Notes: generated by a model from the letters alone, not told the origin. A DNA stretch of 64,000 bases from Acidimicrobiales bacterium (GCA_035552775.1 DASZKW010000043.1:1-64000), one strand, 5' to 3'; counted from the stretch's first letter, positions 1 through 21,148 are shown. A program made the numbers and translations.

Positions 1-713
1 ACCGGTTCGAGGCTGGGGCGTATCTGGTCGGCACCGAGGCCCTCCAGTTCTTCGAGCGGGTACGTTCCGGTGCCCACGAGCAGGCAGCGGGCTCCGGCCG
101 CCTGAGCGCACTCCAGGTCGCGAGGGGTGTCGCCGACGACCCAGGTGTCGCCGGCTGTGAGCTCCACGCCGTGGCGGCCGGCGACGCGGCGCAGGGCGAC
201 GGGCACCAGTACCCGGCGGTCGGCGTCGTCGCTTCCATAGGCGCCTACCTCCAGGTCGAGCCAGCGCTCCAGGCCGAACGCGGTCAACTTGACGACGGCG
301 TTGGGGGCGACGTTACCGGTGAGCACCGTCGACACCACCCGCCGGTCACAGTGGAGGCGCTCGAGCAGATCGACCACCCCGGGCAATACGTAGCCGTCGG
401 CGGCCATCGCCGCGGCCGCTGCCTCCAGCCCCTCCTCGAGGTGGCGGAGGATCTCGGGCAGAGCCTCGGGAGCGGCGTGCATCAGCTCCAGGTACTCGCT
501 CACGATCTGGGGATCGGTCTTGCCACCCATGCGGACACGGACTTCGGGAGCGCGCCCCAGCACCGCCTCCAGGGCACGGTCGAACACCGCAGCACCGTGG
601 CCGCCGGCGTGGAGCAGCGTCCCGTCCACGTCGAAGAGCACGAGGCGCCGGATCACCGGATCAAGGTACGGAGTTTCTTCGCCGTCACCAGCGGCGGGGT
701 AGACAATGGTCAT
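1..713 (-). CDS. HAD-superfamily hydrolase (C-terminus off left edge of window)
   Basis: Minus-strand translation begins [10 protein letters not shown]...[17 protein letters not shown] (DxDGT motif I) and later [24 protein letters not shown] (motif IV region). ATG at 713..711. The ORF is not in the track because it runs off the edge. Confidence 0.6.
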
Positions 714-2349
714 GCAGATCACTCCGGTGCGCATGACCGAGACGACCGAGTGGAAGGCGCTCGCCGAGCACCAGCGCCAGCTCGCGGACGTCCACCTGCG
801 TGACCTTTTCGCCGAGGATCCGAGCCGGGGCGACACCCTCACCGTCGACGCCGCCGACCTCCACCTCGACTACTCCAAGGGCAGGCTCACCGCCGAGACC
901 ATCCGCCTGCTGGTGGCCGTCGCCGAGCGAGCGGGCCTGCGCGAGCGCATCGACGCCATGTTCGCCGGCGAGCACATCAACACGACCGAGGACCGCGCCG
1001 TGCTCCACGTGGCGTTGAGGGCGCCGCAGGGCGCCGCCCTGACCGTTGACGGCGCCGACGTCGTCGGCCCCGTCCACCGTGTGCTGGAGAAGATGGCCGT
1101 TTTCTCCAACCAGGTTCGCAGCGGCGAATGGCGGGGGGCCACCGGCAAGCGCATCGCCAACGTGGTCAACATCGGCATCGGCGGATCCGACCTCGGGCCG
1201 GCCATGGCCTACGGGGCGCTCCAGCCGTTCGTGGATCGTTCCCTCACCGTCCGCTTCGTGTCCAACGTCGACGGCAGCGATATCTGGGAGGCCACCCGCG
1301 ATCTCGACCCCGCCGAGACGCTGTTCATCGTCAGCTCCAAGACCTTCACCACGACCGAGACCATCACCAACGCCCGCTCGGCGCGGTCGTGGCTCCTGGC
1401 CACCCTGGGAGACCCTTCGGCGGTGGCACGCCATTTCGTCGCCGTGTCCACCAACGCGGCCAAGGTGGCCGAGTTCGGGATCGACACCGACAACATGTTC
1501 GGCTTCTGGGACTGGGTGGGGGGCCGCTACTCCTTCGACTCGGCCATCGGGCTGTCACTGATGATCGCAGTGGGGCCCGACGCATTCTTCGAGATGCTCG
1601 GCGGCTTCCACGCCATCGACGAGCACCTGCGCACCACCCCCTTCGAGCGCAACCTGCCGGTGCTGCTGGGAATGATCGGCGTCTGGTACTACGACCTGTT
1701 CGGGGCCCAGACCCACGCCATCCTCCCGTACAACCACTACCTGGCCAAGTTTCCGAGCTACCTCCAGCAGTTGGACATGGAGAGCAACGGCAAGTCGGTG
1801 ACCCTCGCCGGCGAACCCGTCGACATGGCCACGGGGCCGGTCGTGTGGGGCACCCCCGGTACCAACGGCCAGCACGCCTACTACCAGCTGATCCATCAGG
1901 GCACCCGGCTAATCCCTGCCGATTTCATAGGTTTCCTGCGCCCAGCGCACCGCGTCGGCGACCACCACGACCTGCTCATGGCCAACCTGTTCGCCCAGAC
2001 CGAAGCCCTGGCGTTCGGCAAGACCGCATCAGAGGTTTCCGCCGAGGGGGTGGCCGCCCACCTGGTCCCCCACCGCACGTTCGCCGGCAACCACCCGACC
2101 ACCACCATCCTCGCCCCCGAGTTGTCGCCCCGGGTGCTCGGCGAACTCGTCGCCCTCTACGAGCACAAGGTCCTGACCCAGGGGGTGGTCTGGGGGATCA
2201 ACTCGTTCGACCAGTGGGGCGTGGAGCTCGGCAAGGCGCTCGCGGGCAGGATCGTCCCCGAGCTCACGTCGGAGGCGGAGCCCGAACTGGGCCACGACAG
2301 CTCGACCAACGCCCTCATCCGCAGGTACCGGGGCGCCCGTCGGGGCTGA
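706..2349 (+). CDS. pgi: glucose-6-phosphate isomerase
   Basis: 547-aa ORF with hallmark PGI motifs ([32 protein letters not shown]). Confidence 0.9.
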
Positions 2350-3388
2350 GCGGCACGCCGGCGGGGTCGGGCGGGGGGCCGGCGGGGTCGGGCGGGGGGC
2401 CGGCGGGCGGCCTGGCGGGGTCGGGCGGGGGGTCGGGGGGCGGCCCGGCGGGGTGGGGGGGCGGCCCGGCGGGGTCGGGCGAGTCCGCCTCCATTCTGGG
2501 GACGCAAACCAGGACTCTGTCTTGGTTTGCGTCCCCAGAATGAGTCGGGCCTGCGAAGGTGACCGGCGCGTCCCACGCGGCTCGCCGGGAGGCTCTGCGC
2601 AGGGCGGCTAGGACAGCCTTCCCGAGCACGAGGATGAGCGCGGCGTTGATCACCGCCCGGGGCAGGTCGAAGCCGAGCGAGGTGCTCAGGTCGAACGCCA
2701 CGAAGTGACGCAGGTTGGCGACGGCGCCGGCGCCGGCTTGGTAGGAGATGCTGGTCCCCGATGTCTGCAGGGGCCAGAACCACAAGTTGAGCAGCGCCCC
2801 GTACAGCACGGAAGCGACGGCGACGTAAGCGGCCAGCAGCGCGCATTCGGTACGCCCGGTGGCCCGGGGCAGGCAGCCGGCGCCGAAGCCCATCCACGCC
2901 GCGCCGAACATCTGGAACGGCAACCACGGTCCCACCCCTCCGCTGATCAGGGCGGACGTGACCAGTGTGACCGCGCCCAGGACGAAGCCGAACCCTCGGC
3001 CGAGGACACGGCCGGCGGGCACGAGGAGGAAGAACACCGGCTCGAACCCGGCGACGCCGGGGCCGACCACGCGCAGGGCGCTCCCGCACGCGGCGAGGAC
3101 GCCGAGCATGGCGATGGCCTTGGCGTCGATGGCGCCGTCCGCTATCTCGCTGAGGACGATGGCGAACAGCAGCGGGAGCAGCACGGCGAACTCCCAGGGA
3201 GCGTCGCCGGCGTGTGCCATCGCCGACGGCGATTGTCCGCTGATCACCAGCGGCCATATGAACGACGCCACGCCAAGCGCCGACGCCACCGCCAGCAGGA
3301 CCGACGTTGACGGCCGGAACCGGATGACGCCCGCCGGCCTGGGCGTCGCCAGCCGGGGTGCCCCCCGTGACCTCACTACCCCGCTCAT
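2315..3388 (-). CDS. polytopic membrane protein, putative substrate-capture (S-like) component of the ECF-type transporter; 3' end uncertain
   Basis: ATG at 3388 overlaps the TGA of the upstream ATPase (ATGA). About 290 aa of hydrophobic segments. The ORF reads through the hairpin and a proline-repeat tail to 2315. Confidence 0.45.
2350..2470. repeat. GC-rich tandem repeat (about 21-nt units, ggcggggtcgggcggggggcc) directly after the pgi stop
   Basis: Direct repeats visible in the sequence. They encode a PAGPPPDP repeat on the minus strand at the C-terminus of the downstream ORF. Confidence 0.7.
2493..2541. terminator. perfect 18-bp inverted repeat with 13-nt loop (attctggggacgcaaacc / ggtttgcgtccccagaat), no T-run
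   Basis: Seen directly. It lies between convergent pgi and the ECF-operon end, so it is a likely bidirectional terminator or an RNA processing hairpin. Confidence 0.45.
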
Positions 3389-5100
3389 GCTCGGCCCCCC
3401 GGTGGCCCGTCGGGCTGCGGGCTCCCCAGCGCGCCCGGCAACGCGCCCCCCAGCGCGCCCCCCTGCACGCCTTGCAGCGCGTCGCGCACCTCGCCGACGG
3501 TAAGCCAGGGGTCGGGGGCGAAGACCTTGGCCACCTGGGGGGCGAACACCGGGGAGTGGCACACCATCTGGCGCGCTGGTCCGTCGCCCACCACCGCGCC
3601 GTCGGCCAAGAACACCACCCGGTCGGCGACCTGGGCCGTCAACTCCACGTCGTGGGTGGCGACGACCACGGCGTGGCCGGCGCCGGCCAGATCGCCGAGC
3701 AGGGCGCCCAGCCGGCGCTTGGCGGTGTAGTCGAGGCCTCGGGTCGGCTCGTCGAGCAGCACCAGCGGGGGCTCGGGTGCGAGGATCACGGCGAGGGCGA
3801 GACCGAGGCGCTGACCCTCGGATAGGTCCCGGGGGTGGCGGCCGGGGTCCAGGTCAGCGGCGATGGTGTCCAGCACCGACGCCGTCGTTCCCGTCTTCAG
3901 CCCGCCGTCGCGGTCGGCGGTCGCGCATTCCTCGGCGACGCTCGACGCCCACAGCAACACCCCGGCGTCCTGGGGTACCAGTCCGACCCGGCGGGTCAGC
4001 TCGGCCGGGGTCATGGTGTGCGGCGCCCCGCCGAGCACCCGGACCCTCCCGCCGGTGGGGGCCCGGGCACCGGCGAGGCGGGAGAGGAGCGTGGACTTGC
4101 CCGATCCGTTGCGCCCCATCACCGCCGTGATCTGCCCCCGGTAGAACTCGACGTCGACATGGCGCAGCGCCGGCCGGCCGGCGTAGACCACGGTGAGCGC
4201 TTCGGCGGTGGCAACCGGCCCCCCTGGGGCACCCCGCGGCGCGCCGGCCGGCGCCTGGGCGCCGGCGCCGGCGGCGGCGGCGGCGGCGGTGAGCTCGGCA
4301 CGCAACGGGCCGGCAAATCGGCGGGCGTCGCGCACCGACAGCGGCAGCGGTGACCAGCCGGCCAGGCGCCCGAGCTCGACGATGGGCGGGGCGACGGGAG
4401 AGGTGGCCATCACCTCGGATGGCGGGCCCGTCTGCAAGGGCCGGCCGGCGCCGGGCACGCTGATGACCCGGTCGGCGAATGGGATCACCCGCTCCAGGCG
4501 GTGCTCGGCGACGACGACGGTGAGGCCGACGTCGTGGACGAGGCGGGCCAGCGACGCCAGCACGTCCTCGGCGGCGGCCGGGTCGAGGGCGGAGGTGGGC
4601 TCGTCGAGGACGAGGACCCGGGGGGAGGCGGCGAGCACGGCGCCGATGGCGACCCTTTGCTGCTGGCCGCCCGACAGACTCCGCACGGGGCGGGACCGCA
4701 CCTCGTGGAGTCCGAGAAGGTCGAGGGTGTCCTCCACCCGGCGGCGCATCGCCGCGGGGTCCACCCCGAGGTTCTCCATGGTGTAGGCGAGCTCGTCCTC
4801 GACGACGTCGGTGACGAAGCTGGCGGCCGGATCCTGGCCCACGAAACCGACGAGGTCGGCCATGTCCCGGGGCCGGTGATCGCGGGTGCTGCGCCCGTCC
4901 ACGCTGACCCGACCGCGCAAGTGGCCGCCACTGAAGTGGGGCACCAGGCCGTTGACGGCACGCAACAACGTGGATTTCCCCGAGCCCGTACGACCGATGA
5001 CGACGCACAACTCGCCCTCGGCGACATCGAGCGCCACGTCGCGCAACGTCGGTTCCGGGGCAGCGGGGTAGGAGAAAGAGACGTCGTCGAAGTTGATCAC
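3385..5100 (-). CDS. ECF transporter ATPase, EcfA-EcfA' fusion (two ABC domains)
   Basis: Two Walker A motifs (GRTGSGKST, GRNGSGKST) and two LSGGQ/LSEGQ signatures. The GTG start at 5100 overlaps the TGA of ecfT (GTGA). The upstream 500 aa of the track ORF 3385..6606 is out-of-frame read-through. Confidence 0.8.
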   Translation of the reverse strand: MINFDDVSFSYPAAPEPTLRDVALDVAEGELCVVIGRTGSGKSTLLRAVNGLVPHFSGGHLRGRVSVDGRSTRDHRPRDMADLVGFVGQDPAASFVTDVVEDELAYTMENLGVDPAAMRRRVEDTLDLLGLHEVRSRPVRSLSGGQQQRVAIGAVLAASPRVLVLDEPTSALDPAAAEDVLASLARLVHDVGLTVVVAEHRLERVIPFADRVISVPGAGRPLQTGPPSEVMATSPVAPPIVELGRLAGWSPLPLSVRDARRFAGPLRAELTAAAAAAGAGAQAPAGAPRGAPGGPVATAEALTVVYAGRPALRHVDVEFYRGQITAVMGRNGSGKSTLLSRLAGARAPTGGRVRVLGGAPHTMTPAELTRRVGLVPQDAGVLLWASSVAEECATADRDGGLKTGTTASVLDTIAADLDPGRHPRDLSEGQRLGLALAVILAPEPPLVLLDEPTRGLDYTAKRRLGALLGDLAGAGHAVVVATHDVELTAQVADRVVFLADGAVVGDGPARQMVCHSPVFAPQVAKVFAPDPWLTVGEVRDALQGVQGGALGGALPGALGSPQPDGPPGGRA

Positions 5101-6245
5101 GCCGCGGTCTCCCCGGGCTCGGTGCCCGCGGGTGCTCCGGTACCCTGCGGCGAGCCCGGAAGCGGAGGGGGCGTCAACGCGGCTGGGGCCAGAGCCACCA
5201 GGATGGCCGCCAGCGGAGCCGCCGCCAGCGCCGGCCACTGCGGCGGCGACACGCTCGGATGTATCCCCGCGCCGGTTGCCACCACTGCGACGACGGGTAC
5301 GAGCACGCTCGCCGCGGTGAGCCATTCGGGGCTGCCCCAACGGTCGGGGCGGTACCGGGTACGCGTCGTTCGCCGGCCCCGGGCGACGAGGGCACCGGCG
5401 AGCATCGCCACACCGAGCGGCAGGATCACCGGTCCCACCGGTCCGGGGATGCCCGTCTGGTCCACCAGGGCGGCCACCCCGAGGACGCTCAGTATCAGCC
5501 CGGCGACCGTGGCCACGTCGCCCACCCGCCCGGCCGGCCCGGGCCGGCGCACCCGGCGGCCGTAGCCACGGGCGTCCATTGACGCCGCCAGCTCCAGCGA
5601 GCGGTCGAGGGCTCCTTCGAGCACGGGGACGGCCATACCCCGTACCCCGGCTATGCCCCGCACGGGGCGGCCCCGCAGCCGGCGGGCGTCGCGGATGTTG
5701 CGCACCGTGATCATGGCCTCGGGGGTAAAAGCCAAACCCACGGTCACCGCAACCCCCGCCTCGTAGAGCAGCGACGGCAGGCAGCGCAGCAGCCGGTAGG
5801 GGCTGGCCAGCGAGTTGGCGGCGGCGAAGCAGGCCAGGATCACCGCCAGCTGGAGTCCCTGGTAGAGCGCCCCGAGGATGGCCTCCACCGTCACCGGGCC
5901 GCCGATGCTGACCCCCGCGGCCCACGTGGGCAGCGGGACACGGGGCAAGGCGAAAAGCTGATGACCGCCGACCTTGGCTCCGAAGACGACCTGGATCACC
6001 AGGCGCACCAAGACGATGGTGACCCCGAAGCGGACCGAGACCCCCAGCGTCGCCGCCCATGGGGCGTTGCCCCGCCGGGTGACCACCACCGACGCCACCA
6101 CCGCGAACACCAGCGCCAGCAGCAGCGGGCTGGTGGTGCGCCCGGCGACCACGGCCAGGCCCGCGGCCCACACCCACCACGCCAGGGGATGAAGCGTCCT
6201 CCTGTACGCCTGTACCCGGCCCCGCCCGCCAGAAGCGAGGCTCAC
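5097..6245 (-). CDS. ecfT: ECF transporter transmembrane T component (CbiQ/EcfT family)
   Basis: 382-aa polytopic membrane protein with CbiQ-like architecture. GTGA overlap with the upstream gene at 6242-6245 and with the ATPase at 5097-5100. Confidence 0.75.
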   Translation of the reverse strand: MSLASGGRGRVQAYRRTLHPLAWWVWAAGLAVVAGRTTSPLLLALVFAVVASVVVTRRGNAPWAATLGVSVRFGVTIVLVRLVIQVVFGAKVGGHQLFALPRVPLPTWAAGVSIGGPVTVEAILGALYQGLQLAVILACFAAANSLASPYRLLRCLPSLLYEAGVAVTVGLAFTPEAMITVRNIRDARRLRGRPVRGIAGVRGMAVPVLEGALDRSLELAASMDARGYGRRVRRPGPAGRVGDVATVAGLILSVLGVAALVDQTGIPGPVGPVILPLGVAMLAGALVARGRRTTRTRYRPDRWGSPEWLTAASVLVPVVAVVATGAGIHPSVSPPQWPALAAAPLAAILVALAPAALTPPPLPGSPQGTGAPAGTEPGETAA

Positions 6246-7288
6246 CCCACCTCGCCTCCCCGGCGCCGGTGGCGGCGCTGGTAGGCGACGACGCCCGCGG
6301 CCAAGGCGGCGAGGAGGGCTGCGGTGAGCAGCGCCGGCCAGGCGCTGCCGCCGGTCCGGCGCAGCGAGCCCGACGCGCCGGCCACGGCCCGGGGACCGCC
6401 AACGTTCGAGACCCGGTCCCCCGCCGGCGCCGAGGTGGTGGGGGCATCGAGTGTGGTCCGGGCACCCGTCGCCTGTTTCGGGGTGGGCGCTGCGACGCTG
6501 GACGCGACGGTTGCCGACACGGCCGGCGGGCGCGGCGCTTTCCCTGCCCGGTCACCGGTCGGTGGCGACTGAGCCGGCGCCGACGGCGAACTGCCGCCGC
6601 CCGCACCGGCTGCGACGGCGGCCGTCCCGGCCGGGTTCGACGCGCCGGACGGGGGTGACGAAGCGGGCGAGGAAGGTCCGGGGGGTGGCACAGTGGGCGA
6701 CGTCGCAGCGGGCACCGTCGTCGAGGCTGCGGTCGGAGACGGCGCCGTCGTACCGCAGGTGACGGCGGGGTCCGCCGGGCCGCGCGGCGCCGGGTCGCTC
6801 GGGTTACCGTGGCCGGGGTCTTGGAAACGCCAACCCTGCGTCGTGGCCGCCGACGCGGTGGCGAACGCCGGTCCGGTGTTGGAGTAGCTCCAGCCGCCGG
6901 CCGTGCCCTGCCAGTACGACCAGTAGTCGTACCCGCCGGCGGTGAGGGTCCCGCACCCCGAGGCGGGAGTGCCGTCGATGGCGCAGAGCAGCCCGCTCGG
7001 GTCGTAGCGGGGCGGGGGCCACCCCTCCTGGTTGGAGAGGTCGGCCAACGCCTGCGCGTTGTTGTCCCCGCTCGGGACCTCCACGCAAGCCTGGACGACG
7101 TTTCCCGGCGAGGTGGTGGGGCCGCCGAAGTCGACGACGAACGCCACGTGCGATCCCGTCGCCGCCGCCGCGCACCCCGCGCCGATCGGGCCGGCGAGGC
7201 TCGACGCCGGGAGCCAGGTGGCGGTGCCGACGACCACGCCGGCGGCCAGAGACATCCGCCCCCACCGCCGCGCCCACCGGTTCATCAC
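6242..7288 (-). CDS. secreted, membrane-anchored accessory protein (signal peptide, about 150-aa globular domain, Pro/Ser/Thr-rich linker, C-terminal TM anchor with RRHRRR stop-transfer)
   Basis: N-terminal [33 protein letters not shown]. Conserved domain with a YDYWSYWQG motif, a long PT-rich spacer, then a C-terminal hydrophobic helix plus basic tail. ATGA overlap with the upstream gene. Confidence 0.65.
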
Positions 7289-8748
7289 ACCCCGGGCGGG
7301 TCGGCGCCCATGGCTACCACGGGCCGGTTCAGTTGGGCACCGCCCTCGGAGCCCAAGAACGGGGCGTCTCCGAAGGTGAACACACCACCGTCGGACGCCA
7401 CCAGCCAGTAACCGCGCCCGTCGGCCGTCGGCGCCATCCCCACGATCGGCGCGTTGAGCTTGGCGCCGCCCTCCGACCCGTAGAAGCCGGCGTCGAAGCT
7501 GAACACCCCGCCGTCGGACGCCACCAGGCGGTAGCCCGAACCGGCGGTGGGGTGGGGGTTCTCGGGGAAACTCAGGCCGGCGAGGGCGGGCACCGCCTGC
7601 TCGGTGGCCAGCAGGTTGGCGGTCAGGGCGCCGTTTGCGCCGGCCTGGAACGCGAGGGCCCCCGTAGACGGGCTAGCGGAAATCTGGAGTCCGAGCAGGA
7701 ACGACAGGGCATCGGCGCCTCCCTTGACGAAGCGGGGACCGACGGGGGAGGTCCTGGCGGCGACTAGGGCTTGGATGACCAAGGCGGTGGAGTCCGAGTC
7801 GCTGGGCCCCCCGAAGTACGCCCAGCCTCCGTCGCCACCCTGGACGGCGGCGAGGAAGCCGACGGCGTCGTGGGCGGGAGCGGTCCGCTGGGCGGCGAGG
7901 CCCTCGACGGCAACGGCGGTGGAGTTGGTATCGGGTCCGGTATAGGTGGAGGGGTCGGCCGGCGGGCACGGTGTGGCGGTGTCGGCCCGGTATGCCTCCC
8001 ACCCGCCGCTCTGGCACTGCTGGCCCGTCAGCCACCGCAGCGCCGGGGCTATGACCGCCGTTCCCACGTCGCCGGCCCCGGCGAGGGCGGCTAGGGCCAG
8101 GCCCTGGCGGTACGCACCGTCGTAGGTCGGGTCGGCGCTGCCGAACAGGCCGGCGTCGGTTCCGCTGGTGCGCATGGTGGCGAGGAGCCGCGCCACCAGG
8201 TCGCTTCCGCCGAAACGGCGAGGGTCGACACCGGTGGCGTGAGCGTCGAGGATGAGCAGGGCGAGCCGCCCCGGGTCGTCGACCGGCGGGGTCTGCGAAC
8301 GGTCGACCACGGCGGCGTCGACGTGGGCCTGCAGGTAGGCGATTGCCGGCGCCACAGTTCCCGGGTTGGTTCCGGTGGCGGCGAGGGCCAGGACGGCCTG
8401 GGCGGTGTCGGAGTAGTCGGGTTGACCGGGCGAGGTGGCGGAGGGGATGAAACCGTGGGCGCCGAACTGGCTCGCCAGCCACGTCGAGGCGACAGCGGCG
8501 GCCGGCGACTGGGGGAGCCCGGCCGCGGTCCCAGGCGCACTGGCGGAGGCGCTCAGGCCGGCGAGCGCCGGGGTGGCCGCCAGCGCCGGGGTGGCCGCCA
8601 GCGCCGGGGTGGCCGCCAGCGCCGGGGTGGCCGCCAGCGCCGGGGTGGCGGCGACGGCCGCGGCCAGGGCCGCGGCGGCTACGGGGCGGAGTCGGAAGCA
8701 CAACCGACGGTCGCCGGGTCGGCGCCGGCGGGACGAGAGCGGGACCAT
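7285..8748 (-). CDS. secreted prenyltransferase/terpene-cyclase-like (alpha/alpha-toroid) repeat protein with C-terminal tandem [11 protein letters not shown] repeats
   Basis: ATG at 8748 with an AGGAGG Shine-Dalgarno 8 nt upstream. Signal peptide with an (ATPALA)x5 repeat. Q-x-x-GGW repeat motifs ([22 protein letters not shown]) typical of the prenyltransferase/squalene-cyclase fold. Two C-terminal 40-aa repeats. Confidence 0.65.
8563..8650. repeat. perfect 18-bp tandem repeat x5 (cagcgccggggtggccgc) encoding (ATPALA)n in the signal-peptide region
   Basis: Seen directly in the sequence. Confidence 0.85.
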
Positions 8749-9021
8749 GGTTCGTTTGCCTCCTGGTGAGCGGAGGAGACGAGGAACGCTCCTGCGACGC
8801 CCGGGAAGGGAACCGCACGAACCAACCTTGCTCCGAGGACTGGTTTCGTCGACCCGAAGCAGACGACCGGGCTCATGCTCCAATGGAGCCATCACCGTTG
8901 CGGCACAGCGCCGGGATCGCACCGGACTTCGCTGACATTCGGACCACCCCGCTGGTGGGCCAGGGCCAGCGAAATCTAATCCTGGCCCCCGGGGGTGTCA
9001 AGGTCCGGGGGCTACGGTCAT

Positions 9022-10074
9022 TCAGGCGCTGACGGTGGGCCTGTCGTTTATGGCCCCTTGACGCTCGGCGAGGGGACGCCCGTCGCGCCCGCAGCGCACC
9101 GCGAGGATCTCGGCGCCGATGCTCAGCGCCACCTCCGCGGCGCTGCGCCCGCCGAGGTCGAGGCCGATGGGCCGGTGGATACGCTCCAGGGCGGCGTCGG
9201 TCACCCCTGCGGCCCTCAGGCGTTCGATCCGGCGGGACTGGGTACGCCGGGAGCCCATGGCCCCGACGTACGCGGCGCCGGCAGCCAGGCCGGCGGCCAG
9301 GGCGGGAGCGTCGACATGGGGATCGTGGCTGAGGACCACCAGGGCGGTTGATGCCCCGCCCCATGCCAGCAGCCCGTCGACTTCGGTGAGAGCGTCGGTG
9401 GCGCGGGTCTCCCATCCCAGCAGGCTCGCCTGAGCGGCGATGGCGCCCACCAGCTCGCCGGCGCCGACGACCACGACGCGAGGCGAGGGCACCCAGATGT
9501 CGGCGAGCACCGCGCCGGTGGGATCGTCGAGACGGCGGGTCATGGTGTTGCCCGACCGAAGAGCCTCCACCGCGGCCGCTACCAGTCCGGCGCCGGGCGG
9601 TGTGGCCGGGTCCCCGAGACCGCCCTGCCAGGTCCCGTCGGGATGCACGGCGGTGCCGGCCGGTCCGGCACCAGGCCCGTCGATACGGGTCAACAGGGCG
9701 ACGGGGGCGCGCGCTGCGAGCGCCGCCCACAACTCCTCCGGTACCGCCTCGGCGGGCTGGAGGAGGAGGTCGGCTTGACCGCCGCAGCTCAGTCCCGCAT
9801 CGGCGACCCGCGAGCCGTGCACCTCGATGGCCAGGCGGAACAGGGTGCCCGGGCCGGCGAGGACGTCGGCGGCCGCCTCGGCCACCCGCCCGGCGCCGTA
9901 GCGGCCGAGGATGTCGCCGCGGCGCTCGCCGGCTTCGTTGACCGCCACCAGCTCGTCGCCGGACCAGGTGGAGAAACCTTGCAGCTCGACGACGCGCGCG
10001 AACACGGCCCTCGTGCCCTTTGCGCGCCAGGCCTCGAGCTGGGCGGCCGTCTGCTGAAGTCCTCGGTCGTCCAC
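9022..10074 (-). CDS. XdhC/CoxI-family accessory protein
   Basis: 350-aa ORF with XdhC-like N-terminal and Rossmann-like C-terminal regions (VVVVGAGELVGAIA...). Confidence 0.75.
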   Translation of the reverse strand: MDDRGLQQTAAQLEAWRAKGTRAVFARVVELQGFSTWSGDELVAVNEAGERRGDILGRYGAGRVAEAAADVLAGPGTLFRLAIEVHGSRVADAGLSCGGQADLLLQPAEAVPEELWAALAARAPVALLTRIDGPGAGPAGTAVHPDGTWQGGLGDPATPPGAGLVAAAVEALRSGNTMTRRLDDPTGAVLADIWVPSPRVVVVGAGELVGAIAAQASLLGWETRATDALTEVDGLLAWGGASTALVVLSHDPHVDAPALAAGLAAGAAYVGAMGSRRTQSRRIERLRAAGVTDAALERIHRPIGLDLGGRSAAEVALSIGAEILAVRCGRDGRPLAERQGAINDRPTVSA

Positions 10075-10086
10075 GCCGAACCCCGC

Positions 10087-10857
10087 TCAGGAGGGCCGCG
10101 CCGGCCCGGCGACGACGGCGAAGCGGGGGCTGGAACCGAGGATCCGCTCGGCGACCGGCGCGTCGAGCGACGCCGCCCACTCGACGTCGCGCAGGCGGTG
10201 CAACCGGGGCTGGGACCAACCGGCATCGGCGACCAGGGTGGCCACGGCGGAGGGCGACGTGCCTCCCCCGAGGGGCATGGCGGCGCGCACAGACGTCGGG
10301 TATTCGGCGTGATGGCCACCGCGGGGGGCGCCCCTGGCCGCCCTGCCTGCCGCCACCCGCCCGAGGGTCGACTTGGTCCGGTGACGTAGGCGCTCGAGAG
10401 AGTCGTGGCCTCCCCACATTCCCTCGAACAGGACCAGGCGGCCGCCACCCGAGCTTCGGTGCCAGGCCCGCAGAGCCTCGAGCGGGTCGGGCAGGGTCCA
10501 CAGCAGGTGGCGTTCGATGACCGCGTCGAAGGGGCCGGGGGGTGGCCGCTCGGCCGACCCCTCCACCACCTCGACCTCGAGGCCCTCGCCGGCGGCCTTG
10601 GACTCGAGGCGCGCCAGCATTCCCGGCGACAGATCGAGCGCCGTCACCTGGTGTCCGAGCCGCGCCGCCAGCAGGCTCAAAAAGCCGGTGCCCGCTCCGC
10701 AGTCGAGGACGCGGGCGGGGGCGGGCGGCAGCATTTCGGTCAGAGCGGCCGCCCACGCCGCCCGCTCCGCGGGGGCGGTGGGGTGGTGGTTGGGCACGTT
10801 GTCGTAGATGGCGCTGTCGTCGTCCCAGAAGCGGCGGACCTCGTCGGCGATGGTCAT
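10087..10857 (-). CDS. class I SAM-dependent methyltransferase
   Basis: Motif I VLDCGAGTGFLS. 256 aa. Confidence 0.75.
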   Translation of the reverse strand: MTIADEVRRFWDDDSAIYDNVPNHHPTAPAERAAWAAALTEMLPPAPARVLDCGAGTGFLSLLAARLGHQVTALDLSPGMLARLESKAAGEGLEVEVVEGSAERPPPGPFDAVIERHLLWTLPDPLEALRAWHRSSGGGRLVLFEGMWGGHDSLERLRHRTKSTLGRVAAGRAARGAPRGGHHAEYPTSVRAAMPLGGGTSPSAVATLVADAGWSQPRLHRLRDVEWAASLDAPVAERILGSSPRFAVVAGPARPS

Positions 10858-10930
10858 GCTCCCCAGCCTACGAAGGCTGGAGCGCTCAGTTCTGGCGCGG
10901 CGCTACGCTCCCGCGGTGGCGTCGTACAGC

Positions 10931-11317
10931 ATGAGCCAGGCTGCCCGCCTGCTCGGGGTGAGCGCGGACACCGTCAGGCGCTGGGCCGACGGCGGGCGCC
11001 TGCCGGTGACGCGCCGGCCCGCGGGCCGGCGGGAGGTCGACGGGGAGGAACTGGCCCGGTTGGCCTCGTCGATGGCCGACGACACTGACCTGGGGGCGAC
11101 GGGCAGCCACTCGGCGCGCAACCGCCTGGTGGGCATCGTCACCAAGGTGACCAAGGACGGGGTGATGGCCCAGGTGGAGCTCCAGGCAGGCCCGTTCCGC
11201 ATCGTGTCCCTGCTCAGCCGGGAGGCGGCCGACGAGCTGGCCCTGGCCCCGGGGACCATGGCGGTGGCGTCGGTGAAGTCGACCTCCGTCACCATCGAGC
11301 TGCCGGCACCGACCTGA
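10931..11317 (+). CDS. MerR/excisionase-type HTH plus TOBE (molybdate-binding) domain regulator, ModE-like
   Basis: MSQAARLLGVSADTVRRWADGGRL HTH followed by a TOBE/Mop domain (NRLVGIVTKVTKDG...VELQAGPFRIVSLLSREA). Convergent with modABC. Confidence 0.7.
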   Translation: MSQAARLLGVSADTVRRWADGGRLPVTRRPAGRREVDGEELARLASSMADDTDLGATGSHSARNRLVGIVTKVTKDGVMAQVELQAGPFRIVSLLSREAADELALAPGTMAVASVKSTSVTIELPAPT

Positions 11318-11392
11318 ACGCGCCAGGCCGCTGCCAGCGGCGGCGGCACCCGCTGATGGGCAAGTCGCGGCCGGCGGCTCAGGCGTGGACGA

Positions 11393-11448
11393 GATCGCCG
11401 ACTGGGTACCTTCGTTCCTCGGGGAGTCGACGTAGCAACGCTCGCCTC
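11393..11448. repeat. partial copy (one arm plus adjacent core, about 43/44 nt identity) of the palindromic element at 48444-48540
   Basis: ggtaccttcgttcctcggggagtcgacgtagcaacgctcgcct equals the reverse complement of 48444-48486 with one mismatch. Confidence 0.8.
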
Positions 11449-11491
11449 GGGTAACTGCCCCGGCGGGAGCTTGGCAATACCATCTCGGCCG

Positions 11492-13354
11492 TCAAGGGCC
11501 TGCGCTGATGGGGCGGCCCAGGGAGCGCGGCGACGTCAACTCCTCTTGGCGCCACGCGCCGACCGGGGGTAGGTCGACACGGGCGAAGGACCCGGCCGCC
11601 AGGTCCTCCACCGCCCGGTGGTGGCTGACCAGCACCACGCCGGGGGCGAGCTCGACGGTCGCCTCGCCGCGCCGGCCGAGGTCCACGACGTCGAGGACCC
11701 GCACCGGCCATCGCCCCGCCGCCGAGGGGGCGACCTCCTCGGGGTCGACCGACCACAACACCCGTGCGCCCGGCCGCGCCGCCGCGCCGGGACCCAGATC
11801 GCAGGGCACGACGATCGGCCATGCGCCCGACCCCGCCGCGACCAGCGACGCCCCCGCGACGGTGCCTTCGTGGACGTTGGCCAACCCGAGCAGGTGGGCC
11901 ACTGTGACCGACGCGGGGCGGTCGAACAGCTCCCGGCGCGTGCCGGCCTGGAGGACCCGCCCTCCAGCGAGCACGACTATCTCGTCGGCCAAGGCCGCAG
12001 CCTCCTCGGGGTCGTGGGTCACCACCACGCTGGGCATGCCGGTGTCGACCTGGAGACGGCGCAGCTCGGCGCGCAGGGCGCGGCGAAGGGTGGTGTCCAA
12101 GGCGGCGAGCGGCTCGTCGAGAAGCAGAACCCGGGCCGGAGAGGCCAGGGCCCGGGCGAGGGCGACGCGCTGGCCCTGTCCCCCCGACAGCTCGGCGGGG
12201 TAGCGGGCCTCCAAGCCGTTCAGCCCCAGGCGGTCCAGCCACCACGACGCCCGGCCCGGGGATGCCCCCACGGCGAAGGTGACCTGGTCCCAAACGTCGA
12301 GGTGGGGCACCAGGGCGCCCCCCTGGGGGACGTAGCCCATTCCCCGCTGCTCGGCGCTGAGGGCTCCCAGCTCGTCGTCGCCGACCCTCACCCATCCTTC
12401 GGTCGTCGCCCTCACGCCGGCCAGCAGCTGGAGGGTGAGGCTTTTCCCCGCCCCCGACGGACCCACCACGGCGAGACGGGGGGACCCGGCCCGGTGGGCG
12501 ACGCGCAGGTCGAAGGTGCCGAGGCGCGCCCGGACCGAGAAGTCGAGGGGGAGGCTGGCGCTGGGACGGGGGGCCTCGGGCGGCGGGGGGGGCGGGGGCG
12601 GGCGGCGGCGGCGGCGCAGGTGCCCGACGCCAACGGCCACCAAGGCGGTGGCGATGGCGAGGTCGACGGGCACCTGGGTGGCCGACAGGCCCGTGCTGTC
12701 GAAGCCCACGTATGCGTACACGGGCAGGGAGTAGGGGTGGTAGGCGAGCAGCACGGTGGCGCCGAACTCGCCGAACGCCCGCAGCCAGGTCAGCACCAGG
12801 CCGGCGCGGATCCCAGGCAGCGCTTCGGCGACATCCACACGCCAGAAACGGGACCACCGCCGGTGACCGAGGGTGGCCGCCACCGCGTCGAGGGAAGGGT
12901 CGACGCCGGAAAACCCGGCCCGGGCGGCGACGATCAGGAACGGACCAGCCACGAACGTCTGGGCCAGGACGATGCCCCAGATCGACTCGGTCAGGCGTCC
13001 ACCGCTGTGGCGGCCGAGGAACGTGTACGGCCCGACCACCCGGATGAGCAGCAGGCCGCTCACCAGCGGGGGCAGGGCGAGGGGAAGCTGGACGAGCGCC
13101 CCGACCGTCCCCCACGCCCGGCGGCCCCAGCCCGGCGGCCGGCGGCGGGCGAGGACCCATGCGAGGGGTATGCCGAGGAGCGCTGTCACGGCGGTGGCCA
13201 CGCTGCTGGCCAGCACGGAGGTGCCGAGCGCCGCCCATACGCTGCTGCCACCGAGGCCTTGCCAATGCCCGGGCCCGAGGCGGGTCAGGGTCAGGGCGAC
13301 TGGAACGATGAGGTAGACGGCCAGCACGCCGCCGAGCACGGCGGCGACCGGCAC
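11492..13354 (-). CDS. molybdate ABC transporter permease-ATPase fusion (ModB-ModC), with C-terminal TOBE
   Basis: N-terminal ModB permease (EAA-like loop, 6 TM). Poly-Pro linker [13 protein letters not shown] encoded by a poly-G/C tract near 12590-12625. Then Walker A GPSGAGKS, LSGGQGQRVALARAL, Walker B LLLDEP, and a TOBE tail. GTG start at 13354 with GAGGAGG Shine-Dalgarno. Confidence 0.75.
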   Translation of the reverse strand: MPVAAVLGGVLAVYLIVPVALTLTRLGPGHWQGLGGSSVWAALGTSVLASSVATAVTALLGIPLAWVLARRRPPGWGRRAWGTVGALVQLPLALPPLVSGLLLIRVVGPYTFLGRHSGGRLTESIWGIVLAQTFVAGPFLIVAARAGFSGVDPSLDAVAATLGHRRWSRFWRVDVAEALPGIRAGLVLTWLRAFGEFGATVLLAYHPYSLPVYAYVGFDSTGLSATQVPVDLAIATALVAVGVGHLRRRRRPPPPPPPPEAPRPSASLPLDFSVRARLGTFDLRVAHRAGSPRLAVVGPSGAGKSLTLQLLAGVRATTEGWVRVGDDELGALSAEQRGMGYVPQGGALVPHLDVWDQVTFAVGASPGRASWWLDRLGLNGLEARYPAELSGGQGQRVALARALASPARVLLLDEPLAALDTTLRRALRAELRRLQVDTGMPSVVVTHDPEEAAALADEIVVLAGGRVLQAGTRRELFDRPASVTVAHLLGLANVHEGTVAGASLVAAGSGAWPIVVPCDLGPGAAARPGARVLWSVDPEEVAPSAAGRWPVRVLDVVDLGRRGEATVELAPGVVLVSHHRAVEDLAAGSFARVDLPPVGAWRQEELTSPRSLGRPISAGP

Positions 13355-13371
13355 CCTCCTCGCCAGGCTGG

Positions 13372-14346
13372 TCAGGGGACGGCGCGAAGGTCGGCCCGCA
13401 GGGCGGGGGGTACGGCCGACACGGGCCCGTTGAGCACCGGCGGGGCCGTCAGGGTGAGGCCGGCGCCGGCTAGGGCCCGCCGGCCGGCGCCGGAGTACAA
13501 GAAGGCGACGAAGGCGACGGCCGCGCCCTGGTGGGGGGCGCGTGCGACGACCGTGACGGTGTAGGAGGCGGACAGATGCACAGGGTCCAAGGACACAGTC
13601 GGGATCCCCGCCGCCTCGGCCTCGTTGGCGTAGAAGAAGCCGGCGTCGAGCTGTCCCGATTGCAGCTCGCCGACCAGGCTCTCCTCGGGGAAGACGTTGG
13701 CGGTGCTGGTGATGACGCCCGCCAGGCTGGGAGCGCGGGCCGCCGTCTCGGCCTGTCGGATCGCCTGGAGCGTCAGCTTTCCCTTGGGGTCGAGCTCGGG
13801 ATCGGTCCGACCGAGCAGGAAGCCGGGTTGGGTGACCACGTCGTACCAGGGCATGGACCTGGGGCCGCCGGGCTCGATCTGGGCGGCGAAGCGGCCGTGG
13901 GGGTTGTAGCCGAGCACCAGGGGGGCCGACGCCAGCGAGGCGTACCACGAGACCCAGCCGCCGTTGGCGCTGCCCTCGAGGGCGGCGTCGGCGGTGGGGC
14001 TGGCGGAGACGAACACGTCGGCCTGGCGCACCTTGCCCTTGATCTCGTTGACCAGGGCGTCGGATCCCCCGGCGAACCCGGTGAAGCTGGCACCGTCGGC
14101 GGCGTCGAAAGCCGGCCCGATGGTGGTGGCCATGAGGTGCTCCAGGGAGGCGGCGTAGAGGACGTCCACCGGCCCAGCGGCGCGCCGCGAAGCGGAGGTC
14201 GCCGGCGACGGCCCGCTCGCCGGCGCTGTCGAACCGCAGGCGGTGAGCGCGGCGGTGAGCGCCGCGGTGAGAGCCGCGGTGACGACGGTGCCAGCCACCG
14301 TCTCCACTGAGGTCGCAGACACCGCAAGCAACGGTACCGCGCTCAC
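13372..14346 (-). CDS. modA: molybdate/tungstate-type ABC substrate-binding lipoprotein (ModA-like)
   Basis: Lipobox LTAALTAALTAC. Periplasmic-binding-protein fold motifs. Start assigned to GTG at about 14346 (uncertain). Confidence 0.65.
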   Translation of the reverse strand: MSAVPLLAVSATSVETVAGTVVTAALTAALTAALTACGSTAPASGPSPATSASRRAAGPVDVLYAASLEHLMATTIGPAFDAADGASFTGFAGGSDALVNEIKGKVRQADVFVSASPTADAALEGSANGGWVSWYASLASAPLVLGYNPHGRFAAQIEPGGPRSMPWYDVVTQPGFLLGRTDPELDPKGKLTLQAIRQAETAARAPSLAGVITSTANVFPEESLVGELQSGQLDAGFFYANEAEAAGIPTVSLDPVHLSASYTVTVVARAPHQGAAVAFVAFLYSGAGRRALAGAGLTLTAPPVLNGPVSAVPPALRADLRAVP

Positions 14347-14389
14347 GCATGTGCGGGCAACTTCCGCCGGGTTGGTGCTGCAAGTGCGC

Positions 14390-14502: not shown

Positions 14503-15279
14503 ATGAGCGTGAAGCCGACAGGGAAAGAGACGCTGCTCGCCGAGACTTTCGTCGCCTTGGCCGACACCTTGGTGGACGACTTCGACGTGATCGACACCCT
14601 CACCACCCTCGTCGCCCGGACCATCGCCGTGCTGGGGGCGGAGGAGGCGGGCATCCTCCTGGCCGGCCCGGAGGGCGACCTCCACGTCGTGGCCGCCTCG
14701 AGCGAGGCGGCGCGCCTGTTGGAGCTGCTCCAACTGCAGACCTCCCAGGGCCCGTGCCTGGACTGCGTCGCCAGCGGCCGGCCGGTGCACGGCGACGATC
14801 TGTCCACGAGCTCTCGATGGCCGAAGTTCGCCCCGGTGGCGGCGGAAGCCGGGTTCCTCTCTGTCACCGCGATCCCGTTGCGCCTGCGCGACCGGGTCAT
14901 CGGCGGGCTGAACATGTTCATGGCCGAGCCCGCAGAGGTGGGCGACGACTACCTACGCACCGCCCAAGCCCTAGCCGCGGTGGCGACCATCGCCATCCTG
15001 CAGGACCAAGCGGTCCGGGACGCGCAACGCATCGCCGCCCAGTTGCAAGGTGCCCTCGACAGCCGGACGACGATCGAGCAGGCCAAGGGCATGCTGGCCG
15101 AACGGGCGGGCGTCGACATGGACGAGGCGTTCAACCGCCTGCGCCGCTACTCCCGCGACGCCAACGTCCGCCTGACCGCGCTCGCCGCCAAGGTGGTCGG
15201 CGGGGATCTCCCTGTCGAGGTCAAGTGCGCGTTGCTGTCGTCCCGTCGTTCGCCGGCCGGGCGGGCCACAACCAATTAG
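14503..15279 (+). CDS. GAF-ANTAR RNA-binding antitermination regulator
   Basis: N-terminal GAF-like domain. The C-terminal ANTAR signature includes RTTIEQAKGMLAERAGVDMDEAFNRLRRYSRDANVRL. Confidence 0.8.
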   Translation: MSVKPTGKETLLAETFVALADTLVDDFDVIDTLTTLVARTIAVLGAEEAGILLAGPEGDLHVVAASSEAARLLELLQLQTSQGPCLDCVASGRPVHGDDLSTSSRWPKFAPVAAEAGFLSVTAIPLRLRDRVIGGLNMFMAEPAEVGDDYLRTAQALAAVATIAILQDQAVRDAQRIAAQLQGALDSRTTIEQAKGMLAERAGVDMDEAFNRLRRYSRDANVRLTALAAKVVGGDLPVEVKCALLSSRRSPAGRATTN

Positions 15280-17167: not shown

Positions 17168-17251
<84 letters not shown>

Positions 17252-19832: not shown

Positions 19833-21148
19833 TGGCGGCGATCGCTCGGCGGCCGCCCCGGCGCCGGACCGAGCTCGGCCTGATAATCCTGGCGGTGATC
19901 CTGACCGGCGGCCTGTACACCCTCGCCGGCGAGGGCAAGAGCGGCTCGTTGCCCGCCAACATCGTCCCCTTCCTGATCGTCATCTTCGTGTTGTTGGTGG
20001 TCGCCCACATCGGGATGCGCTTCTTGGCCCCCGACGCCGACCCCGTCCTGCTGCCCATAGCCGGCCTTCTCAACGGGATCGGTTACGTGTTCATCGCCCG
20101 GCTGGTCAAACACGACGCCGCTCTCCAAGCGGTGTGGACCGCGATCGGCGTGGCCGCCTTCTTGGTCACCCTGGCGGTGGTGCGCCGCGGCCGTGACCTG
20201 CAGCGCTACCGCTACAGCTTCGGCCTTCTCGGCGTGGGGCTGCTGCTGCTGCCCCTCGTGCCGGGCATAGGCGAAGACATCAACGGCGCCCGCCTCTACA
20301 TCCACCTCGGCCCGGTGAACTTCGAGCCGGCGGAGGCGGCGAAAATCCTTCTGGCCATCTTCTTCGCGTCGATAATGGTCGAGCGGGCCGAGCTGCTACG
20401 TACCGGGACCCGGCGCATCGGTCGGTTTCTGGTGCTCGACCCCAAATACCTGGCGCCCATCCTGCTCGCGTGGGGCTTCTCGCTCCTGATCCTCACCGCG
20501 GAGAACGACCTGGGGTCGTCGTTCCTGTTCTTCGCCCTGTTCATCGCCATGCTCTTCGTCGCTACCGGCCGCTACTACTACGTCGGCCTCGGCACCGTAC
20601 TGTTCGCCACGGGTGCAGTGTTCGCCCTCAAGTTCATCGGCCACGCCCAGAGCAGGGTCCAGGCGTGGATCAACCCGTGGCCGCACTACAACACCAACGG
20701 TTACCAGATCATCCAAGGCTGGTTCGCCATCGCCGCGGGCGGCGTGTTCGGCGACGGGCCCGGCCAGGGAACGCCCCAGCAGATCCCCGAGGCTCCCACC
20801 GACTTCATCTTCGCCGTCATCGCCGAGGAGATCGGGCTGGTAGGCGCCACCGCTGTCCTCATCGGGATCCTGCTCATGGTCGGTACCGGCCTGCGCATCG
20901 CGCTACGGGCCGAGCGCCCCTTCGAAAAGCTCCTAGCCACCGGCCTGTCCCTCATCCTCGGGATCCAGACCTTCGTCATCGTCGCCGGGGTGACGCGGTT
21001 GATCCCGCTCACCGGCATCACCCTGCCCTTCGTGTCCTACGGAGGGTCGTCGCTCGTCACCAACTACGTCCTGCTCGCATTGCTGCTTCGCCTTTCCCAT
21101 GACACCAACTCGGCGACGGCGGAACTGGTCGAGGCGGTGGCGGCGTGA
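19832..21148 (+). CDS. rodA: SEDS-family peptidoglycan glycosyltransferase RodA/FtsW
   Basis: Ten-TM SEDS protein. ATG overlaps the pstP stop. Confidence 0.85.
   Translation: MAAIARRPPRRRTELGLIILAVILTGGLYTLAGEGKSGSLPANIVPFLIVIFVLLVVAHIGMRFLAPDADPVLLPIAGLLNGIGYVFIARLVKHDAALQAVWTAIGVAAFLVTLAVVRRGRDLQRYRYSFGLLGVGLLLLPLVPGIGEDINGARLYIHLGPVNFEPAEAAKILLAIFFASIMVERAELLRTGTRRIGRFLVLDPKYLAPILLAWGFSLLILTAENDLGSSFLFFALFIAMLFVATGRYYYVGLGTVLFATGAVFALKFIGHAQSRVQAWINPWPHYNTNGYQIIQGWFAIAAGGVFGDGPGQGTPQQIPEAPTDFIFAVIAEEIGLVGATAVLIGILLMVGTGLRIALRAERPFEKLLATGLSLILGIQTFVIVAGVTRLIPLTGITLPFVSYGGSSLVTNYVLLALLLRLSHDTNSATAELVEAVAA

Follow-up and report, generated by a model that had tools for sequence, protein, structure and literature searches.

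What is imported by an energy-coupling factor (ECF) transporter whose operon also encodes two exported proteins? The question is raised by a locus on the minus strand of a 64-kb stretch of DNA from an Acidimicrobiales metagenome-assembled genome (MAG; GCA_035552775.1, DASZKW010000043.1:1-64000). This stretch, with 70-77% G+C, is called the window below, and positions are counted from its first letter. Five co-directional open reading frames (ORFs), g1 to g5, extend from 8748 to 2315 in the order alpha-beta-T-AA'-S, behind a leader that carries a cobalamin riboswitch. Taken together, the sequence evidence indicates that the operon probably encodes an importer of corrinoids (vitamin B12 or cobinamide). 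A preliminary description of the locus had proposed a substrate-capture module on an ECF transporter and had guessed at a vitamin, a corrinoid or a metal chelate as the substrate. The capture module is supported by the protein folds, by gene co-occurrence and by a natural gene fusion, and the corrinoid is the best supported of these guesses. Calling the module uncharacterised overstated its novelty, since the design was predicted in 2007 (PMC1796856) and has been studied in Lactobacillus sakei. The elements of the locus, in the order of transcription, are the following.

8973..9001, minus strand: sigma-70-like promoter TTGACA-17 nt-TAGATT, a consensus match directly upstream of the riboswitch
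8816..8959, minus strand: aptamer of a cobalamin (adenosylcobalamin, AdoCbl-type) riboswitch, detected with Rfam RF01482 and with a model of the relatives
8759..8778, minus strand: candidate expression platform, composed of an anti-Shine-Dalgarno (anti-SD) CUCCUC at 8778-8772 and an SD AGGAGG at 8764-8759, 10 nt before ATG 8748
7285..8748, minus strand: g1, secreted alpha/alpha-toroid protein, 487 aa
6242..7288 (start 7288 or 7285), minus strand: g2, membrane-tethered protein, transcobalamin-beta-like (SLBB/DUF4430-fold) in its predicted structure, probable member of the SCO2322 family
5097..6245, minus strand: g3, EcfT, transmembrane coupling component, 382 aa
3385..5100, minus strand: g4, fused EcfA-EcfA' double ATPase, 571 aa
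2315..3388, minus strand: g5, S component, substrate-specific membrane protein, 357 aa

Gene starts and junctions

Three of the junctions are start/stop overlaps of 4 nt: GTGA at 6245-6242 (g2/g3), GTGA at 5100-5097 (g3/g4) and ATGA at 3388-3385 (g4/g5). The starts of g3, g4 and g5 agree with the NCBI record of the same MAG (382, 571 and 357 aa), and three of the five operon proteins are identical to NCBI entries. These three overlaps thus give no sign of wrong start assignments, a concern raised in the preliminary description. The junction g1/g2 (7288-7285) reads GTGTGATGA: either a GTG start overlaps the stop codon by 4 nt (GTGA) or the ATG at 7285 overlaps it by 1 nt (TGATG). The public annotation uses a later start for g2, ATG 7255 (30 nt downstream), which yields 337 aa, and g1/g2 is the sole junction whose coupling hinges on the choice of the start. 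We prefer the upstream starts (7288 or 7285), because they add an Arg-rich n-region before the hydrophobic core, as found in signal peptides. For g1, the start ATG 8748 is preceded by AGGAGG at 10 nt and gives a protein of 487 aa. The maximal ORF of 545 aa, starting at GTG 8922, was rejected: it has no SD and would be translated through the riboswitch aptamer. Three terminator-like matches inside the operon are at the level of chance (1.5 expected).

The chain of five minus-strand ORFs given in the preliminary description is thus confirmed, with small corrections. Three of its overlaps stand as described, and the fourth, given as ATGA at 7285-7288, reads GTGA/TGATG. The coordinate 8748 for g1 is correct and its length is 487 aa instead of 545 aa. 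The polytopic membrane protein g5, with its Pro-rich tail, is indeed bigger than a typical S component; its length is 357 aa and not 290 aa.

Conservation of the operon and natural fusions

A profile of g5 retrieved 80 species-level loci, and at least 565 genomes encode a relative. The counts of conservation were made on the 60 species-level loci with at least 6.5 kb of upstream DNA. The genes T-AA'-S are colinear in all 60 loci, and a g2-type gene is found directly before EcfT in 57 of them. A g1-type toroid gene precedes g2 in 34 loci, and propeller repeats are present in 29 of these 34. In 22 loci the riboswitch is directly in front of g2 and there is no space for g1. g2 is the constant partner of the transporter and g1 is an optional addition. 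The same five genes are also found in Streptomyces, again with overlaps of 4 nt (a Prenyltrans/SQHop-like gene, SCO2322, CbiQ, AA' and S), and the operon is there preceded by a sub-threshold RF00174 match. As the T-AA'-S order recurs in 60/60 loci and the whole arrangement in Streptomyces with the same overlaps, it is far from chance.

A search with a profile of the g2 domain gave 4076 cluster representatives (50% identity) at E up to 0.001. Among the best 150 of these 4076, the proteins P0329 and P0365 are fusions of a g1-like toroid with a g2-like beta domain, followed by a Pro/Thr linker and a transmembrane anchor. P0329 (676 aa, locus L084, 3998-6028) is composed of a signal peptide, the toroid, the g2-like domain, the Pro/Thr linker and the transmembrane anchor, which corresponds to the domain order of transcobalamin. 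Its toroid shares 41% identity with g1 (E 7e-56) and its beta domain 43% identity with g2 (E 3e-24). The gene is localized behind a riboswitch core and ahead of the genes of CbiQ, AA' and a PF12822 S component. The P0329 fusion, the conservation of the operon and the common riboswitch show that g1 and g2 would act together and with the ECF module. The preliminary description had left room for the two secreted proteins to lack any conserved co-occurrence with ECF genes; this is not the case, as indicated by the 57/60 and 34/60 loci and by the fusion.

In locus L066, the riboswitch core (5715-5750) is found directly before EcfT, and the g1- and g2-type genes (11090-12854) follow the S gene at a distance of about 2 kb. 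As this locus shows, the capture genes need not lie next to the riboswitch.

The leader and its riboswitch

The leader of g1 is the gap of 273 nt between the end of xdhC (9022) and the ATG of g1 (8748). The site at 9001-8973 matches the sigma-70 consensus in 10 of 12 positions and is the sole promoter-like site within 2000-9300 (0.1 expected from shuffles); its consensus match suggests that it functions as a promoter. Downstream, RF01482 matches 8958-8816 with 39.0 bits (E 1.7e-5 for the region searched). The riboswitch core GAAGUCCGGUGCGAUCCCGGCGCUGUGCCGCAACGGU is located at 8930-8894, and the window leader has the conserved core GGGAA..CCGGU..AA.CCGG..CUG..CCGCAAC.GU, with covarying stems, 5' of the operon. 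A covariance model (R1) was built from 36 relatives, the window being left out. In the 64 kb this model gave one window match, at 8959-8826, with 33.3 bits and E 1.6e-6, the next best score being 9.3 bits.

The search of the leader 8749-9021 for riboswitches, which the preliminary description had suggested, thus revealed a cobalamin riboswitch that is sub-threshold in the window and above threshold in six related loci. Five orthologous leaders reach the gathering score of RF00174 (L003, 43.9 bits; L004, 37.2; L058, 36.5; L002, 33.3; L001, 31.8), and the leader of a Nanopelagicales locus (L062) passes that of RF01482 with 66.7 bits. A stringent search pattern of the core, GAAG..C.GGU...C.GG..CUG..CCGCAA..GU, was recovered in 58 of the 60 loci, and in all 60 if up to 3 substitutions are allowed. 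Each locus contains it a single time, on the strand of the operon and ahead of its first gene in every case. RNAalifold predicted 18 pairs on 62 leaders, with compensatory changes in 9 of them. The score of the window by itself is only suggestive, and the call is settled by the related loci: judged from them, the leader is a cobalamin riboswitch.

Between the aptamer and g1, both the minimum free energy and the centroid folds pair CCUCC with GGAGG. Because the energy of this SD-sequestering hairpin is no better than that of shuffles (z -0.5), we infer translational control through SD sequestration from the predicted pairing only. In most relatives (leaders L001-L080, alignments A5 and A7), a strongly conserved block CCGUCGAGA(A/C)... 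is found about 20 nt 3' of the aptamer. The window version of this block, GUCCUCGGAG, is degenerate. The block may belong to the expression platform or serve as the partner of a kissing loop.

The tethered protein g2

The protein g2 is composed of a signal peptide, an ectodomain of 125 aa, a Pro/Thr/Ser/Ala stalk of about 150 aa and a transmembrane helix (residues 315-333) followed by the stop-transfer sequence RRHRRR. The motif YDYWSYW, the Pro/Thr/Ser linker and the C-terminal anchor noted in the preliminary description are all present. Four Cys and the motifs VVVDFG and YxYWSYW are near-invariant in the family. The protein scores 68.8 bits with the NCBIfam model NF040672 (SCO2322 family; cutoff 85), and a public copy of g2 (P0121) and all 54 homologues bear a precomputed match to PF28005.

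The AlphaFold2 model of the g2 domain (predicted local distance difference test, pLDDT, 83; predicted template modelling score, pTM, 0.78) was compared with the PDB. The best fold matches are corrinoid-binding domains, and Foldseek ranks the same proteins first. According to this model, g2 has a transcobalamin-beta-like fold, that is, the beta-grasp fold of the transcobalamin clade. As sequence methods do not detect the relationship, the claim is limited to the fold and does not extend to homology. Matches to PsaF (E 0.3), obtained in the profile searches of the PDB, were dismissed as they have only the string 'SGLLC..DGLP' in common.

Orthologues of SCO2321/SCO2322 from Streptomyces are found at L082 (6796-8642). 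These Streptomyces proteins align to g2 with swapped segments, the YWSFW half coming first and the VVDFG...LLCAI half second, and their alignment to the g1 toroid is shifted in order as well. This suggests that the beta domain is circularly permuted or that the toroid repeats are shifted in register.

The secreted toroid protein g1

The protein g1 begins with a signal region containing (ATPALA)5, continues with a toroid (approximately residues 75-400) and ends with two YVTN-propeller-like repeats of 41 aa (405-487). It carries the motifs QQCQSGGW and QGGDGGW, and the two repeats read GY[RW]LVASDGGVF. These elements had all been described beforehand (as (ATPALA)5, QxxGGW-type motifs and two repeats), the repeats with a length of 40 aa instead of 41. 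The (ATPALA)5 stretch is encoded by a perfect tandem repeat (18 bp x 4.8, 8564-8649, 100% match). It is located within or just after the signal peptide and is absent from the relatives; this tract may be hypervariable and slippage-prone.

With the NCBIfam model SCO2321_fam (NF053823), g1 scores 204 bits, below the cutoff of 300, and only the model positions 32-228 of 405 are covered. The toroid is shared with the Streptomyces protein SCO2321, the C-terminal part of which is replaced by the propeller repeats. The relatives of g1 have approximately 600-700 aa and six repeats that are often near-identical (including P0175, P0181, P0196 and P0215). These repeats match the YVTN beta-propeller 1L0Q, an S-layer protein of Methanosarcina, with E 2.8e-6. 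The AlphaFold2 model of g1, built from 7285-8580 (residues 57-487), has a pLDDT above 90 across the model residues 20-340, which form an alpha/alpha toroid of about 320 residues. Foldseek places class II terpene cyclases with a single domain at the top of the list for this model (E 8e-9); the intrinsic factor alpha domain (E 4e-4, TM-score 0.62) and that of transcobalamin (E 6e-4) are significant matches too.

These matches raise the alternative that g1 is an extracytoplasmic enzyme modifying terpenoid or prenyl compounds. The operon would then export or remodel an isoprenoid-linked compound of the envelope, and the ECF neighbourhood would reflect envelope biogenesis. The best matches of g1 in Pfam and in the PDB are, as in Foldseek, squalene-hopene or class II terpene cyclases, and its QxxGGW-like motifs point in the same direction. 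However, the scores remain below the cutoffs (SQHop_cyclase_C, 23.1 bits for 26.1; TIGR01787, 21.7 bits for 322.7), the sequence search of the PDB gave only weak matches to squalene-hopene cyclases, and the cyclase motif DxDD (D.DD) is absent from the g1 sequence. The protein has only the fold in common with the class II terpene cyclases and squalene-hopene cyclases and does not belong to them. Moreover, g1 is secreted, far from the pools of prenyl diphosphate, and it is dispensable in 22 to 26 of the 60 loci where g2 is retained. The toroid also occurs fused to a transcobalamin-like beta domain, ECF transporters import, and a B12 riboswitch controls the operon. The enzymatic explanation therefore appears extremely improbable. 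As DxDD is absent and the protein is exported, a binding role seems more likely for g1 than catalysis.

The ECF module

The coupling component g3 matches the Pfam family CbiQ with E 5.8e-4 and 20 bits, below the cutoff of 25. It has several transmembrane segments and the two coupling motifs ARRLRG (187) and DARGYG, and its orthologues in Streptomyces and L084 match PF02361, so that g3 belongs to the EcfT family. NCBI names it 'energy-coupling factor transporter transmembrane component T' (HWG73432.1, identical start). The protein g4 contains two ABC_tran domains on one chain (E 8e-53), each half with a Walker A, a signature and a Walker B motif, as expected for EcfA plus EcfA'. Its scores are 291 bits with ECF_ATPase_1 and 280 bits with ECF_ATPase_2, both slightly below the equivalog cutoffs, and 240.7 bits with cbiO (TIGR01166), above the cutoff of 211.8. 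The EcfT and the fused EcfA-EcfA' proposed in the preliminary description are borne out by the CbiQ match, the NCBI name and the doubled ATPase motifs.

The membrane protein g5 is identical to the NCBI entry P0001, 'ECF transporter S component', and the relatives are named likewise at the Joint Genome Institute. Its conserved core of about 280 aa, with about 6-7 hydrophobic segments, exceeds the usual size of S components, and its homologues number more than 5300. Across the Acidimicrobiia the core shares 62-77% identity, with more than 100 invariant positions. g5 itself has no match in Pfam or NCBIfam. PF12822 (ECF_trnsprt) is matched by 2 of 21 g5 relatives (best E 6.5e-9) and also by the orthologue in L084, which shares 58% identity with g5; g5 is therefore an S component encoded within its module. 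The homology to S components, which the preliminary description had considered could be lacking together with any CbiM-like homology, is thus found through this relative. Neither g5 nor A1, its profile of 21 sequences, matched any S component in the PDB at E up to 10, the CbrT of ECF-CbrT included. For this reason g5 is assigned, on sequence grounds, to an S family separate from CbrT.

The Pro-rich tail of g5 (75 residues, PDPAGPPP-like, with DNA repeats of 21/54 bp, window 2315-2540) is found in this genome only and is absent from the 20 aligned relatives (20/20). Over its last 35 nt, the tail runs into the 3' end of pgi, a convergent gene on the plus strand (706-2349).

Transporters of group I (dedicated module) are characterized by having no extracytoplasmic solute-binding protein. 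The present operon departs from this definition, as two exported proteins are conserved with it, and these two partners are the feature that sets the subgroup apart among group I ECF transporters.

B12 riboswitches also commonly precede cobalt transporters, as members of the B12 regulon, which speaks against a necessary link with corrinoid uptake. The operon could accordingly be read as a cobalt/nickel importer of the CbiMNQO/NikMNQO kind, in which the riboswitch signals a demand for cobalt in B12 synthesis and the secreted proteins serve as accessories that bind the metal or a metallophore, like NikK/NikL or CbiN. The score of g4 above the cbiO cutoff, the weak CbiQ match of g3 and the fold match of g2 to 3U7Z, deposited as 'putative metal binding protein', would fit this reading. 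Yet cbiO and CbiQ are models of the module that ECF transporters have in common and say nothing on the substrate. In the component that defines the substrate, no match to CbiM, CbiN or NikM was detected in Pfam for g5 and its 20 relatives, and the relatives match PF12822, an S family of the vitamin type. In fold, g2 is most like corrinoid-binding domains, and the pairing of a toroid with a beta-grasp domain is the architecture that surrounds an entire corrin ring (PMC1796856). We consider the cobalt/nickel importer unlikely and the corrinoid importer the better description of the module.

Comparison with known systems

The SLBB superfamily was defined by Burroughs, Balaji, Iyer and Aravind in 2007 (PMC1796856). 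In this work, bacterial domains of the transcobalamin clade, most of them secreted, were found together with alpha/alpha toroids, either fused or associated, and now and then with beta-propellers. Their operons also contain genes of the CbiO-like and CbiQ-like types, the organisms lack B12 synthesis, and scavenging of B12 or its precursors was predicted. The window operon resembles these systems in the secreted or anchored transcobalamin-clade beta-grasp domain, in the toroid and in the CbiO- and CbiQ-like genes. It differs from them in several respects. That survey was centred on low-GC Gram-positives and archaea, whereas the present beta domain is assigned to the actinobacterial SCO2322 family, which is missed by the DUF4430 HMM (hidden Markov model). 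The anchor is a C-terminal transmembrane helix here and a sortase motif there. The toroid is usually a separate protein with six YVTN-like repeats, and a riboswitch and a defined S family are documented here, in contrast to the 2007 systems.

The L. sakei genes Lsa1836-1840 form a five-gene ECF operon with separate exported beta-like and alpha-like proteins, tied to haem uptake (bioRxiv 10.1101/864751). The two operons are likened by their parts list and description, including the proposal that the ligand is captured outside the cell and then passed on to the S component. The genes run in the opposite order (S-AA'-T-beta-alpha in L. sakei; alpha-beta-T-AA'-S here), and both the phylum and the regulatory context differ, with haem as the proposed substrate in L. 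sakei and a B12 riboswitch in the window. That the closest studied operon is tied to haem and not to B12 tells against a corrinoid substrate, and a haem or other tetrapyrrole importer has to be considered. The complete correspondence of the parts (S, AA', T, beta-like and alpha-like proteins) and the ECF-type haem uptake of Staphylococcus lugdunensis (PMC7299338) would agree with it. However, the cobalamin riboswitch core before the operon in 60/60 relatives, with six leaders above the Rfam thresholds, points to a response to the B12 status and not to the iron or haem status. In addition, no haem-related gene was found among the ten window proteins scanned. Haem uptake appears very unlikely on these grounds, and B12 or cobinamide is retained as the probable substrate.

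ECF-CbrT of Lactobacillus delbrueckii is a biochemically proven ECF importer of B12 (Santos et al. 2018, PMC5997447). The window system would likewise be an ECF-type ATP-binding cassette (ABC) importer for cobalamin/cobinamide, with an S component predicted to dock on EcfT-EcfAA'. CbrT uses a shared module (group II) and has no extracytoplasmic partner, whereas g5, with about 280 aa, has its own module (group I). In the PDB searches with g5 and its profile, no sequence similarity with CbrT was found, so that by sequence g5 is not of the CbrT type. In comparison with animal transcobalamin, intrinsic factor and haptocorrin, the two domains are here split over two genes, and the beta domain shares only 11-16% identity with its animal counterparts. 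Contrary to animal transcobalamin, the beta domain is membrane-tethered, and delivery is predicted to occur to an ECF transporter instead of an endocytic receptor.

In acI Actinobacteria without B12 synthesis, ECF modules behind cobalamin/AdoCbl riboswitches were described by Kang et al. in 2017 (PMC5301498). The Nanopelagicales locus L062, found with the g5 profile, has the order g1-g2-T-AA'-S behind its RF01482 match (66.7 bits) and demonstrates that the acI modules belong to the same family as the window operon. The 2017 work covered the ECF module and the riboswitches only; the two surface proteins and their folds are not discussed there. A full-text literature search on SCO2321-2325 found nothing relevant.

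Strength of the corrinoid assignment

Several further observations weigh against a corrinoid importer. At the level of the leader, the window riboswitch is below the Rfam thresholds: RF01482 gives 39.0 bits for a gathering score of 50, RF00174 gives no match in the gathering-threshold scan of the whole window, and the B12-box half of the window leader is the most divergent among the 62 leaders. Concerning g2, its identity to the beta domains of transcobalamin is only 11-16%. The ectodomain has no Pfam match at E up to 10, the DUF4430 (PF14478) HMM included; a sequence search of the PDB found nothing meaningful, and the profile of the g2 domain recovered no transcobalamin or DUF4430 chain in the PDB.

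The points on g1 are of two kinds. The fold of the toroid is nearest to terpene cyclases, with transcobalamin and intrinsic factor in the middle of the list, so that the toroid alone is not B12-specific, and the absence of g1 from 22 to 26 of the 60 loci means that it is not essential to the system. Secondly, the window g1 has two repeats and not six, and none of the starts tried recovered it from the public protein collection. Its C-terminus (7285-7540) may be explained by a deletion, by a pseudogene call or by a repeat collapse in the short-read assembly, the relatives of about 620 aa speaking for collapse or deletion, and the window copy of g1 may be defective or mis-assembled.

Neighbouring genes

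The flanking genes are unrelated to the operon: pgi (706-2349, plus strand) converges on g5 and xdhC is localized upstream. The genes on this upstream side are the following.

10074-9022, minus strand: XdhC
10857-10087, minus strand: methyltransferase
10808-11317, plus strand: MerR/TOBE (ModE-like) regulator
14383-11492, minus strand: long ORF with BPD_transp_1 and ABC_tran domains

This upstream stretch (9022-14383) appears molybdenum-related. Beyond it are found a GAF-ANTAR antiterminator-type regulator (14503-15279), a tRNA gene on the minus strand (17168-17251, Rfam 54.3 bits) and, at 21145-24656, a penicillin-binding protein transpeptidase followed by a PASTA Ser/Thr kinase (PknB-like pair).

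Proposed mechanism and significance

The following mechanism is proposed for the operon. Transcription would begin at the promoter near 9000, and the leader would fold as a cobalamin riboswitch. With sufficient intracellular B12, the riboswitch would shut down all five translationally coupled genes, probably through masking of the SD of g1. When B12 is scarce, the operon would be expressed, and g1 and g2 would be exported. The beta-grasp domain of g2, on its flexible stalk of about 150 residues, would capture a corrinoid near the surface of the wall, and, on the model of transcobalamin and intrinsic factor, the toroid of g1 would close over the beta-bound corrinoid. When intrinsic factor is cut into its alpha and beta fragments, the two can come together again on cobalamin, which is bound first by the beta fragment. 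This order of binding would fit a system where g2 alone suffices in about 40% of the lineages. The loaded capture module would then pass the ligand to the S component g5, which, docked on EcfT (g3), would translocate it, driven by ATP hydrolysis in EcfA-A' (g4). The last step is established for ECF transporters, in which the S component translocates its ligand on the EcfT-EcfAA' motor (PMC5997447, PMC10368641), and in transcobalamin the two domains, alpha and beta, hold B12 between them (PMC1796856). By analogy with these systems, a transcobalamin-like clamp handing its ligand to the S component is plausible.

We lean, by a small degree, towards a broader proposal of an ECF transporter for corrinoids that depends on binding proteins. 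In this proposal, a split bacterial transcobalamin, with a tethered beta domain and, in about 60% of the lineages, a toroid-propeller lid, would form around the corrinoid on the cell surface and would then dock on a hitherto uncharacterised S family, unrelated in sequence to CbrT. It would be the main entry route of B12 in abundant and often B12-auxotrophic Actinomycetota (Acidimicrobiia, Nanopelagicales/acI and Streptomyces). The concept is already known, and the operon is an actinobacterial addition to it, with a design that is widespread in Actinobacteria. The present analysis adds the identification of the predicted SCO2322 fold, the toroid-SLBB fusion, the quantified conservation of the riboswitch, g2 and T-AA'-S, and the distinct S family.

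If the proposal is true, this system would be a mechanistic exception to the rule that ECF transport proceeds without solute-binding proteins. A surface-fed ECF transporter would challenge the textbook contrast with the binding-protein-dependent ABC importers, and it would supply a bacterial model of the two-domain B12 clamp of animal transcobalamin. A testable role is also proposed for SCO2321 and SCO2322, two widely annotated families without function, which the fold, the natural fusion, the operon and the riboswitch tie to the distinct S family; the SCO2322 domain comprises more than 4000 clusters at 50% identity. Few microbes make B12 and many need it. To our knowledge, B12 uptake in Actinobacteria is poorly characterised, with the exception of the mycobacterial BacA. 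The acquisition of B12 by abundant soil and freshwater Actinobacteria shapes community dependencies.

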